A model generated the notes under the pieces. That model saw only the letters and a program-made list of their open reading frames with translations, did not search any database and was not told the DNA's origin. Position numbers and translations under genes: made by a program. A stretch of DNA of 64,000 nt. Origin: Escherichia coli (GTDB lineage Bacteria > Pseudomonadota > Gammaproteobacteria > Enterobacterales > Enterobacteriaceae). Position 1 is the stretch's first letter, and every line of letters starts with the position of its first letter. The DNA is taken from NCBI RefSeq assembly GCF_003334305.1, contig NZ_QOWS01000003.1. The stretch is one strand, 5' to 3'. Of this stretch, positions 10,493 through 21,311 are shown in pieces.

Positions 10493-10810
10493 ATGCAACC
10501 GGTGTTTCTTTTTAAAAAACGTACCGGAGCAATGGGCGGTCATGTCGCTGGCACCGCAGGATTCTGCGTTGCTGTGCCAGCCTTTTATTCATGGTCAATG
10601 AGTGAGGTGATTGATAAAGACACCAGGTCGTCAGAGCGCACTGATTATCCGCATTATGCCAGTGAAGTTGCACTGGCTTTTGGTTCACGAGTGGTTGGCC
10701 TCGAACTGGCAAAAATGATTGTGGATGCGTGGCTGGGCGCACAGTACGAAGGCGGTCGTCATCAACAACGCGTGGAGGCGATTACGGCAATAGAGCAGCG
10801 GAGAAATTGA
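10493..10810 (+). pseudogene. rpiB: remnant of ribose-5-phosphate isomerase B (rpiB), N-terminally replaced and internally deleted
   Basis: residues from about 10604 onward read EVIDKDTRSSERTDYPHYASEVALA then FGSRVVGLELAKMIVDAWLGAQYEGGRHQQRVEAITAIEQRRN, which I recognise as the N-proximal and C-terminal parts of E. coli RpiB (about 149 aa) with the ICGTGVG catalytic segment missing; sits directly upstream of yjdP as rpiB does in K-12. Confidence 0.55.
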
Positions 10811-10878
10811 GATTCATCCACTACTTGCATGGATGAGTAATGACTAATGTGGATAGAGTTTCTTTTTGAGGTTGGCTA

Positions 10879-11208
10879 ATGAAACGCTTTCCGCTATTTC
10901 TTTTATTCACCCTGCTCACGCTGTCCACCGTTCCGGCCCAGGCTGATATTATCGACGATACTATTGGTAATATTCAGCAGGCGATTAATGACGCTTATAA
11001 CCCTGACCGTGGGCGAGACTATGAAGATTCGCGCGACGACGGCTGGCAGCGTGAAGTGAGCGACGATCGGCGCAGACAATATGACGACCGCCGCCGCCAG
11101 TTTGAAGATCGCCGCAGGCAGCTGGACGATCGCCAGCGCCAGCTTGATCAGGAGCGTCGGCAACTGGAGGATGAAGAGCGGAGAATGGAAGATGAGTATG
11201 GGCGATGA
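10879..11208 (+). CDS. yjdP: small secreted protein with acidic/RRQ-rich repeats
   Basis: 109-aa ORF with signal peptide MKRFPLFLLFTLLTLSTVPAQA and DDRRRQ repeat-rich C-terminus. Confidence 0.85.
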   Translation: MKRFPLFLLFTLLTLSTVPAQADIIDDTIGNIQQAINDAYNPDRGRDYEDSRDDGWQREVSDDRRRQYDDRRRQFEDRRRQLDDRQRQLDQERRQLEDEERRMEDEYGR

Positions 11209-11230
11209 GGTTGGGTATGGAGCAGGCATC

Positions 11231-11333
11231 GCCCCTCACCCCAATGGGGAGAGGGAGAAAACGAGCGCAATATTCAATATCGAGCACAATCGGTCCCCTC
11301 GCCCCTCTGGGGAGAGGGTTAGGGTGAGGGGGC
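11231..11333. repeat. GC-rich imperfect palindromic intergenic repeat (boxC-like; family name tentative)
   Basis: GCCCCTCACCCCAATGGGGAGAGGG ... CCCCTCGCCCCTCTGGGGAGAGGGTTAGGGTGAGGGGGC; related copies at 20252-20294 and 38131-38206. Confidence 0.5.
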
Positions 11334-11354
11334 CAGCGCGCACATTCCCTCTCA

Positions 11355-12113
11355 TCACGCCACCCCAATCTCCATCCCATCAAACCCCACCTCAAACCCT
11401 GACGGTAGTGCGTTTTCCATCAGCCACGCATCAAACTGGTGGCTGATATGGGTCAGAATCACCTGTGGCGAGCGGATAACCTGATTCAGCGCAAGCACGG
11501 TATTTAAATCACAGTGATTACGCGGTGCATCCGCGCGCGGCGGGTGACTGCAATCAATCACCATCACCTGCGGATGATTATTGAGTAAAAATTTCAGCGT
11601 TTTTTCCGGCAGGCCAGCGGTGTCAGACAGCCACGCCACCCGGCTATGTGCCGTTTCCAGCAGATAACCGAAGGTCAGTTTTGAGTGGTTAAGCGGCAGC
11701 GGCGTGACCTGCAACCCCTGCAAATCAAACACCACAAACGGTTCCACTGTGTGGCTGAAATCAAGCAGGCCCGGATGTTTAAACAGATCGTCGCAGCCCT
11801 GTTCATCCGGCGGGCCGTAGACCGGGATCACATCGCCCACGCCCCAGCGTAGCGGAAATAGCCCCTGGACGTGATCCATATGGTAGTGCGTCAGCAAAAA
11901 CTGCTGGAACGATCCAGGCGACCAGCGATCGGTGAGATCGTGCCGCCCGGCGTCGATCAGGGTGATCGCGTCGTTAAACTTCACTACGCCGCTGCATGGC
12001 TGGCGGCGATACTGCGGCGAGCGCCGCGCTCTGGCGCAGGCCGCGCACTCGCAGCCCCATGCCGGAACGCCCTGTGCGCCGCCAGTGCCGGTGAGCGTGA
12101 GGGTCAGGCTCAT
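11355..12113 (-). CDS. phnP: phosphoribosyl 1,2-cyclic phosphate phosphodiesterase (metallo-beta-lactamase fold)
   Basis: 252-aa protein from the internal Met ([15 protein letters not shown]); HYHMDH metal motif; last gene of the phn operon. Confidence 0.92.
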
Positions 12114-20233: not shown

Positions 20234-20251
20234 GTTTGGCTCCGTTTAATG

Positions 20252-20294
20252 TTTTCTCCCTCTCCCTCAAGGGAGAGGGGACCGATCGAGCACA
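20252..20294. repeat. copy of GC-rich palindromic repeat (boxC-like) between phnE and phnD
   Basis: TTCTCCCTCTCCCTCAAGGGAGAGGGGACCGATCGAGCACA; its reverse complement matches the 11231-11333 element (GGGAGAGGGAGAAAAC and CGAGCACAATCGGTCCCCTC segments). Confidence 0.5.
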
Positions 20295-21311
20295 TTACTG
20301 CACCGCTTTACTCACCGAACTCATCGCGCTTAACGCGTTGTTCAGGCGGTCCAGGTCATCCAGCTGCGCCTGAATCTCGGTGGTTTTCGCCAGCTTGTCC
20401 TGCTCATTCAGTCCTTTATTGCTTTTTACGCCCTGCATCTCTTTAAACAGTGCGAGCTGGCGAATCGGCACCAGTTGCAGGTCGCTGGAGGCGCGGAACG
20501 GGGCCCAGCCCAGGCGTTCCAGCACCGCTTTCTCTTCCGGCGTTTTTCCGTAGTTCATAAAGAAGTCGTAGATCTTGTCTTTGGTGGTTTCGGAGAGATT
20601 CTTGCGCCAGACGATCGGATCGCCTGGGATCAGCGGCGACTTCCAGATCATCTTCAGTTCTTTCAGCTTCTCTGGCGCGGAGGTTTTCAGCTTGTCGAGG
20701 TTTTCGGTGTTGTTGGTGGCAACATCCACCTGCTTGTTGGCGACGGCCAGCGCGTTGGTTTCATGCCCAGCGTTGACGGTGCGCTTAAAGTCGCTGGCGG
20801 AGATATTGTTTTTGGCAAAGACGTAGTAACCGGGGACGAGGAAGCCAGAGGTGGAGTTAGGATCGCCATTGCCGAAGGTGAGATCTTTCCGCTTCGCCAG
20901 CAGATCGTTCAGGTTGTTGATCGGACTATCTTTGTTGACGATCAACACGCTCCAGTAACCTGGCGATCCATCCGCCGCGACCGTCTGGGCGAAGACCTGG
21001 CCGTTGGCGCGATCCACCGCTTCCATTGCCGACAGGTTGCCGTACCAGGCGATATCCACTTTATTGAAGCGCATTCCCTGGATAATGCCTGCGTAGTCTG
21101 GGGCAAAGAAGGCGTTCACCTTCACGCCCAGCTTCTTCTCCATATCCTGTAAGAATGGCGTCCATTGCGGTTTCAGGTTTTGCTGTGATTCCGTTGAAAT
21201 AATGCCGAAATTCAGCGCCTTTTCCTGCTCTTCGGCGTGTGCCGGGCTTAACAGGGTGCTGAGGCTGAACATGCTGGTGAAGGCCAGCGAGGCAATTATC
21301 TTAGCGTTCAT
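20295..21311 (-). CDS. phnD: phosphonate ABC transporter periplasmic binding protein
   Basis: 338-aa ORF with signal peptide. Confidence 0.92.
   Translation of the reverse strand: MNAKIIASLAFTSMFSLSTLLSPAHAEEQEKALNFGIISTESQQNLKPQWTPFLQDMEKKLGVKVNAFFAPDYAGIIQGMRFNKVDIAWYGNLSAMEAVDRANGQVFAQTVAADGSPGYWSVLIVNKDSPINNLNDLLAKRKDLTFGNGDPNSTSGFLVPGYYVFAKNNISASDFKRTVNAGHETNALAVANKQVDVATNNTENLDKLKTSAPEKLKELKMIWKSPLIPGDPIVWRKNLSETTKDKIYDFFMNYGKTPEEKAVLERLGWAPFRASSDLQLVPIRQLALFKEMQGVKSNKGLNEQDKLAKTTEIQAQLDDLDRLNNALSAMSSVSKAVQ

Follow-up and report, generated by a model that had tools for sequence, protein, structure and literature searches.

BoxC, a family of non-coding intergenic repeats named in E. coli in the 1990s, is the same as TMECO and the PIT element (Holder 2015, PMC4666352), the last being, in the account given there, a redescription by Hoyne et al. 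2000. TMECO is defined by the pattern CCCTCNCCC-N3-6-GGGNGAGGG-N3-GGGNGAGGG, and the catalogue of that study (its Table 1, with coordinates on NC_000913.3) holds 23 copies in MG1655; a separate survey of E. coli gives 22-32 BoxC copies of 50-56 bp each. Type A mm oligonucleotides form a triplex by CD and NMR, with a Tm of about 74 C, and no stable triplex was detected by in vivo DMS footprinting (Holder 2015, PMC4666352). Enterobacter asburiae has 143 copies and Salmonella none (Holder 2015, PMC4666352). BoxC is noted chiefly for rendering adjacent DNA liable to small deletions: TMECO loci vary more than controls, and a 'palindromic effect' deletion leaves hairpins behind (Holder 2015, PMC4666352). 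As relayed by the same source, Hoyne and Maher 2002 detected neither promoter nor terminator activity of PIT elements with reporters.

REP/BIME (PU) sequences resemble BoxC in being short, GC-rich, imperfect palindromes that occur only in intergenic or intercistronic positions, often as inverted pairs, and a BIME fills exactly the same slot between phnD and phnE in K-12 and most other strains; however, the sequences are unrelated, and BoxC alone has an extra third G block. MITEs and ERIC/IRU elements are likewise non-autonomous, multi-copy, intergenic, foldable, and variable in presence from strain to strain, but BoxC, with units of about 56 bp and pairs of about 110-150 bp, is much shorter, and the boundaries examined here had neither a target-site duplication nor the terminal inverted repeats of a known IS. 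REPs have known protein partners, whereas we know of no cognate transposase or partner for BoxC. According to one account (PMC3333891), the Y1 transposase family cognate to REPs is RAYT.

We analyzed a 64,000-nucleotide stretch of E. coli DNA (hereafter the window), in which an initial annotation had noticed a roughly 100-bp GC-rich repeat between yjdP and phnP (11231-11333) with related sequence at two other loci, and had guessed that it was of a 'boxC-type' family. The three loci are copies of BoxC (PIT element, TMECO), and a single joint figure of about 85% covers both this identity and our view that a structure and slippage account is the best explanation of BoxC at these loci. The family has been described before and the type-A unit between yjdP and phnP already catalogued: positions 11296-11331 (CCCTCGCCCCTCTGGGGAGAGGGTTAGGGTGAGGGG) are base for base TMECO no. 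22, a type A mm (one mismatch) unit of MG1655 at 93 min on the + strand (Table 1, Holder 2015, PMC4666352), so the guessed name was right. This unit shows no difference from BoxC/PIT/TMECO (Bachellier et al. 1999; Hoyne et al. 2000; Holder 2015, PMC4666352). The likeness extends to typing as A or B from the second loop (TTA or CCG), to a tendency towards inverted A/B pairs, to an intergenic position, to a copy number of about 20-30 per genome, and to strain-to-strain indels that include the 'palindromic effect', whereas the conserved flanks and the wider conservation over 110-150 bp across the pairs seen here go beyond the 34-37-nt TMECO definition.

BoxC units at three loci of the window

In a BoxC unit, a loop separates the C block (CCCTCNCCC) from a complementary G block (GGGAGAGGG), which is followed by a 3-nt loop and then by a second G block (GGGTGAGGG), all between conserved flanks; the second loop sets the type (TTA for type A, CCG for type B), and units frequently lie in inverted A/B pairs. 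We compared 16 further TMECO units from 11 K-12 loci, flanks included. Their type-A units have the 5' flank GNGCNC(N4-5)CGGTC and the 3' flank gaa(c/a)aggcc.gcac, and in their type-B units (second loop CCG or similar) the unit is preceded by g(g/c)ttttct as 5' flank and has cagcgcgcac within the 3' flank. The flanks in the window are common to these 16 other units; thus, the homology reaches beyond the motif itself. The features assigned in the window are collected in the table.

Table. BoxC-related features of the window (positions in the 64,000-nucleotide stretch)
Feature	Position	Strand	Basis or remark
yjdP	10879-11208	+	Convergent with phnP
yjdP-phnP spacer, 146 bp, holding the BoxC pair	11209-11354		ORFs; RefSeq annotation of the identical K-12 region
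Truncated type-B BoxC unit, gttttct-CCCTCTCCC-CATTG-GGGTGAGGG	11231-11274	-	Type-B HMM E=1.3e-6; intact form in EC21Z-151
Hairpin core within the truncated B unit, also the left-hand member of the 24-nt direct repeat	11233-11255		DNA fold -8.3 kcal/mol, z=-2.65
Intact BoxC unit of type A, with 5' flank gagcacaatcggtc, triplex-motif core, and start of 3' flank	11277-11339	+	nhmmer E=1.7e-18; K-12 flanks
TMECO/PIT core CCCTCGCCC-CTCTG-GGGAGAGGG-TTA-GGGTGAGGG-G	11296-11331	+	Regular expression; Table 1 of PMC4666352
phnP	11355-12113 (stop codon 11355-11357)	-	Convergent with yjdP
Probable collapsed A/B BoxC pair, phnD-phnE intercistronic spacer	20250-20296	-	HMMs: A 6.4e-8 (- strand), B 1.5e-5 (+ strand)
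Perfect palindrome CCCTCTCCC-TCAA-GGGAGAGGG, 9-bp stem	20258-20279		Spacer RNA fold -24.3 kcal/mol, z=-3.2
Probable degenerate relic of a collapsed A/B BoxC pair, upstream of melR	38155-38206	-	Type-A HMM E=2.2e-6 (-), type-B E=0.013 (+)
Decayed hairpin core CCCCTCGCCTCTCTGGGAAGAGGG, differing from the core at 2 positions	38169-38192	-	DNA fold z=+0.12

The region around the first locus (10800-11800) is 100% identical to that of strain O121 RM8352 and 98.3% identical to that of a K-12 derivative. Its composite is best read as a divergent BoxC pair, with an intact A unit on the + strand and a B unit on the - strand that appears truncated by 12 bp, being without one G block and the CCG loop. Two features internal to the composite lie across the two units: 13-nt inverted arms with 92% complementarity, at 11232-11244 and 11319-11331, and a direct repeat of 24 nt (11232-11255 and 11295-11318, 88% identical). 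The repeat sequence and its inverted arms were therefore rightly noticed, but they do not form one element with terminal inverted repeats: the supposed termini are G blocks, namely the outer ones of two BoxC units that run in opposite orientations. The ORF at 11081-11446, which had been called spurious and overlapping the repeat, exists mechanically and is unannotated in every RefSeq record examined. In genome annotation, the three stretches should carry the label of BoxC repeat units or relics, and ORFs that run across BoxC loci, such as this one, should be disregarded.

Only one full match to the strict three-block TMECO pattern was found in the window, at 11296-11330 on the + strand. The sequences at 11233-11255 and 20258-20279 have two blocks only, and that at 38169-38192 has two mismatched blocks; consequently, neither the truncated B unit nor the copies at phnD-phnE and melR appear in the TMECO catalogue. 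We class these three, recognized by their flanks and hairpin, as BoxC derivatives, those at phnD-phnE and melR retaining the hairpin only.

Several comparisons bear on whether the three loci might resemble one another merely by chance, as low-complexity G/C-rich sequences could. Their blocks are indeed short and compositionally simple, and the single 9-mer CCCTCNCCC alone is not significantly enriched (7 in the window; shuffle mean 2.6, maximum 9). However, with as many as 3 mismatches tolerated, the core CCCCTCGCCCCTCTGGGGAGAGGG is present at three places in the window (11232, 11295, and, on the - strand, 38169) and has no match in 100 dinucleotide shuffles, and the two-block hairpin pattern CCCTCNCCC-N3-6-GGGNGAGGG occurs at 11233, 11296, and 20258 and in none of 200 shuffles. 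In pairwise local alignment, each pair of loci scored above all 1000 of 1000 dinucleotide shuffles (z = 7.9-9.9), so the loci are closer to one another than shuffled sequence is, and the relatedness that the initial annotation had proposed holds for all three. We also searched the 64-kb window with profile HMMs (nhmmer) trained solely on BoxC copies from other K-12 loci, the type-A model being built from 10 copies. The type-A model matched 11277-11339 (E=1.7e-18), 20296-20258 (6.4e-8), and 38206-38168 (2.2e-6), the type-B model matched the opposite strand at each locus (E=1.3e-6 at yjdP-phnP, 1.5e-5 at phnD-phnE, and 0.013 at melR), and beyond these loci the next matches had only E>3. Given the shuffle tests and E-values that take in the non-palindromic flanks as well, we rejected chance similarity; together with the notion of a REP/BIME variant, discussed below, it has a negligible probability.

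All three BoxC loci are extragenic, one in the spacer of yjdP and phnP, one in the intercistronic spacer of phnD and phnE, and one in the intergenic region that separates melR from melA, and the gene neighbours had been named correctly. A blastn search with the 116-nt composite found it in 5426 of 5426 complete E. coli genomes, where the number of places per genome had a median of 19 and reached at most 34, and with 100% identity in an MG1655 record, as expected of what had been described as a dispersed intergenic repeat family. Family membership and the architecture of the units are thus observed directly.

Alleles of the yjdP-phnP spacer

Because the B unit of the window is truncated, some strain was expected to have an intact B unit in a spacer 12 bp longer. 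Such an allele was found in EC21Z-151, where the spacer is 158 bp long, holds the full A/B pair, and reads gttttct-CCCTCGCCC-CATTG-GGGAGAGGG-CCG-GGGTGAGGG on the - strand, a complete type-B TMECO. Among the 5,426 E. coli genomes searched, the spacer alleles form a nested series of 158, 146, 95, 76, 42, 34, and 27 bp. The 146-bp allele, present in the window and K-12, differs by a 12-bp loss between period-12 CCCTCNCCC repeats. The 95-bp allele (strain 20AH011) lacks 63 bp from between the inner pair of C blocks, a loss bounded by CCCTC repeats, and retains a perfect 52-nt palindrome (fold -23.3 kcal/mol, z=-4.6). The 76-bp allele of O157 and O55:H7 shows a further loss between GCCCCT repeats, which bound losses of 19 or 70 bp, and the 42-, 34-, and 27-bp alleles are progressively smaller remnants, the last being that of CFT073. 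The mapped deletion breakpoints fall in the short repeats of the element.

Allele frequencies were taken from 60 evenly spaced records of a 301-bp search, one record being a 313-bp match. The full form accounted for 34 of them, and the 95-, 76-, 42-, and 34-bp forms for 2, 4, 1, and 6, respectively; another 12 fit the 27-bp type by aligned length only, and one was an unrelated match. The CFT073 allele is unlikely to be a virgin empty site: it keeps GGGGCCGGCGCGGGTATT, which by eye resembles the 3' flank of the window (GGGGGCCAGCGCGCACATT), and for this reason it looks like a BoxC remnant. Although the series is unrooted, its nesting, together with the fact that 20AH011 and EC21Z-151 have the same accessions for both flanking proteins, suggests decay from a full pair rather than stepwise build-up. 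The series matches and sharpens the 'genomic instability' and the 'palindromic effect' reported for TMECO loci. Little in it is new biologically; it offers a base-resolved example of what appears to be the decay of a BoxC pair by deletions between its own 9-10-nt blocks. Indel variability differs among the loci, with seven alleles at yjdP-phnP, at least six states at phnD-phnE, and a melR relic that is fixed in length. The neighbouring yjdP gene, which encodes a DDRRRQL repeat protein, also differs by strain: it is 357 nt long in Ecol_743 and 330 nt elsewhere, and in strain 2018-06-4CC an internal stop goes with its annotation as a pseudogene.

The phnD-phnE slot and the melR copy

On the mRNA strand, the 62-bp phnD-phnE spacer of the window (20234-20295) reads TAA-tgtgctcgatcggtc-CCCTCTCCC-TTGA-GGGAGAGGG-agaaaac-attaaaCGGAGcc...ATG. 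The BoxC copy thus comprises the A 5' flank tgtgctcgatcggtc, one hairpin, and agaaaac, the reverse complement of the B 5' flank; its flank and hairpin are identical to K-12 TMECO no. 2 in 37 of 37 nt. The initial annotation had placed this copy at 20252-20294 in the opposite orientation. Its layout points to a convergent A/B pair that probably collapsed by deletion between its two GGGAGAGGG repeats. The predicted uncollapsed pair was found in SW071614, where it is 124 bp long, lies between flanking genes that are 99% identical, and is itself ~95% identical to the K-12 hrpB-mrcB pair. Two independent collapses were seen, one that kept the A loop (the window) and one that kept the B loop (TUM10828), and in LR-62-2 the whole collapsed BoxC, flanks included, occupies the slot in the opposite orientation.

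In most sampled genomes, however, this slot holds a BIME (~70%, including K-12) and not BoxC (~28%), so a single intercistronic position in the phn operon can be filled by either repeat. The K-12 BIME allele resembles the BoxC allele only in the stop codon and the ribosome-binding site, and the BoxC copy lacks a REP (PU) palindrome such as GCCGGATGCGGCG...CTTATCCGGCCTAC. We therefore rejected the idea that the repeat is a REP/BIME variant, and the earlier description of the family as distinct from REP/BIME is correct. RNA folds of all phnD-phnE alleles seen were stable hairpins (z -2.7 to -8.1), with energies of -50.5 kcal/mol for the BIME, -73.0 for the full BoxC pair, and -23.5 to -29.3 for the collapsed forms. 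In RM8352 (O121; NZ_CP028110.1 5024121-5024259), the G arm of this hairpin has grown by 78 bp through tandem (GGGAGA)n expansion. This strain is 100% identical to the window at yjdP-phnP yet differs from it here by the +78-bp tract, which means either that the window comes from a different strain or assembly or that the tract is unstable or mis-assembled. BoxC also lies inside the transcript of a second Pho-regulon ABC-transporter operon, pst, where the pstA-pstB intercistronic spacer holds K-12 TMECO no. 19 (NC_000913.3 3908495-3908530).

The third locus had been drawn as 38131-38206, of which 38155-38206 is supported; no support was found for 38131-38154. The copy has the layout gctcggacgctc-hairpin-tgaaaac-cgtgctc and, from this arrangement, is probably an old relic of a collapsed A/B pair. 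The DNA and RNA folds of its hairpin are no better than those of shuffled sequence. A 301-bp region around it was covered in 5399 of 5426 genomes with no length change among the sampled rows, and the relic is further decayed in one strain whose region is 85% identical. MelR site 2 is located at -174.5 (PMC2377442), and this position, together with a CATAAT -10 at 38119-38124, places the melR transcript start near 38113. A CRP site at -41.5 would then fall at ~38144-38165 and would overlap the B-flank part of the relic (tgaaaaCCGTGCTC), and half of the melR CRP site may accordingly be repeat-derived.

Structure, spread, and possible roles

The mechanism that we favor treats BoxC as having no gene-like function of its own. 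In a single-stranded state, its blocks would fold back on one another into a hairpin or cruciform and, in vitro, into an intrastrand purine-motif triplex; these blocks of 9-10 nt would double as direct repeats, and replication slippage or short-homology recombination between them could repeatedly delete, and occasionally expand, parts of the element. We infer structure-induced slippage as the cause of the deletions, in line with the mapped breakpoints, which were observed within the blocks. Since no stable triplex was detected in vivo, the triplex may be irrelevant, and a plain hairpin or direct-repeat slippage may suffice. Our folds, computed with ViennaRNA, likewise concern hairpins only, triplexes being outside the model. 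Folding each copy had been suggested as a check on the repeat: the yjdP-phnP spacer RNA (z about -3 on both strands) and the phnD-phnE copy proved stable, but the melR copy did not.

Stable folding could instead reflect a role at the RNA level, whereby the stem-loops protect the 3' ends of the convergent yjdP and phnP mRNAs or act as an intercistronic stabiliser; in the latter variant, phnC-phnD would be raised relative to phnE. A REP between malE and malF acts as an intercistronic stabiliser. Every phnD-phnE allele folds stably whatever repeat is present, the slot separates a binding-protein gene from a permease gene, TMECO no. 19 lies likewise within a Pho-regulon ABC-transporter operon (pstA/pstB), and the yjdP-phnP spacer folds on either strand, all of which fits such a role. 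We nevertheless consider it unlikely. Approximately 30-40% of the sampled genomes have lost most or all of the yjdP-phnP element, the melR copy folds no better than shuffled sequence, and the K-12 BoxC copies sit in heterogeneous genomic contexts. Promoter and terminator scans revealed neither an intrinsic terminator (a GC-rich stem followed by a T run) nor a sigma-70-like pattern overlapping the elements, including those at yjdP-phnP and phnD-phnE, and the PIT reporter tests, as relayed in PMC4666352, point the same way.

We infer, rather than observe, the manner in which BoxC copies spread. The A/B pair could be an actively mobile, non-autonomous element of ~110-150 bp (MITE- or REP-like) that is copied by a trans-acting enzyme, so that insertions as well as deletions shape the loci, a possibility that we regard as doubtful though likelier than an RNA-level role. 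The pairs of SW071614 and hrpB-mrcB share sharp common boundaries (TGTGCTCG...AGAAAAC) and ~95% identity within unrelated flanks, BIME and BoxC replace each other in the phnD-phnE slot, LR-62-2 carries the entire element inverted, flank conservation reaches beyond the triplex motif, and the motif is multi-copy in distant phyla among the matches listed. BoxC insertions at BIME sites have reportedly been seen as well. On the other hand, the two boundaries compared had no target-site duplication or element-specific terminal inverted repeat, and we know of no transposase associated with BoxC. A diverged lineage could, moreover, have supplied the swapped allele by homologous recombination, or one copy could have converted another, and deletions alone explain most of the yjdP-phnP variation. 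That the pair is still mobile as a ~110-150-bp unit, possibly competing with REP/BIME for intercistronic 'hairpin slots' in either orientation, is a still more tentative proposal. Mobility of the pair would imply either an enzyme that mobilises it in trans or selection that favors any strong stem-loop at this position of the phn mRNA; were either the mobile-element or the RNA-stabiliser reading true, it would supply a mechanism that BoxC has been without since the 1990s.

Beyond E. coli, the strict TMECO pattern is multi-copy in environmental MAGs, in at least 120 stretches among the matches listed. The labels of these MAGs, among the matches listed, include Archangium, Polaromonas, Verrucomicrobia, Hyphomicrobiales, Armatimonadetes, Contendobacter, and a Bacteroidaceae, and inverted TMECO pairs are frequent in the Polaromonas MAG, again among the matches listed. 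Most of the MAG matches displayed have A as the free central base of the first G block and T as that of the second. That the motif keeps these bases across distant phyla is hard to explain by neutrality alone and hints at a constraint or a trans-acting factor.

Within K-12, the long-spacer pairs at fepB-entC, ygfF-gcvP, and alx-sstT have a common ~27-nt spacer, gaacaggccRgca..gcgaa.atta, and ~25 more conserved nt upstream of the A unit (GATGACAA...ACAAAAG), which indicates that the repeated unit is larger than the 34-37-nt TMECO or the 56-bp BoxC. A covariance scan of the whole window against Rfam 15 at the gathering score gave no match at any of the three loci and four elsewhere: a SECIS_2 element (2543-2597, -), naRNA4, a nucleoid-associated ncRNA (22765-22842, -), the STnc630 sRNA (28509-28674, +), and a tRNA (59017-59089, -).
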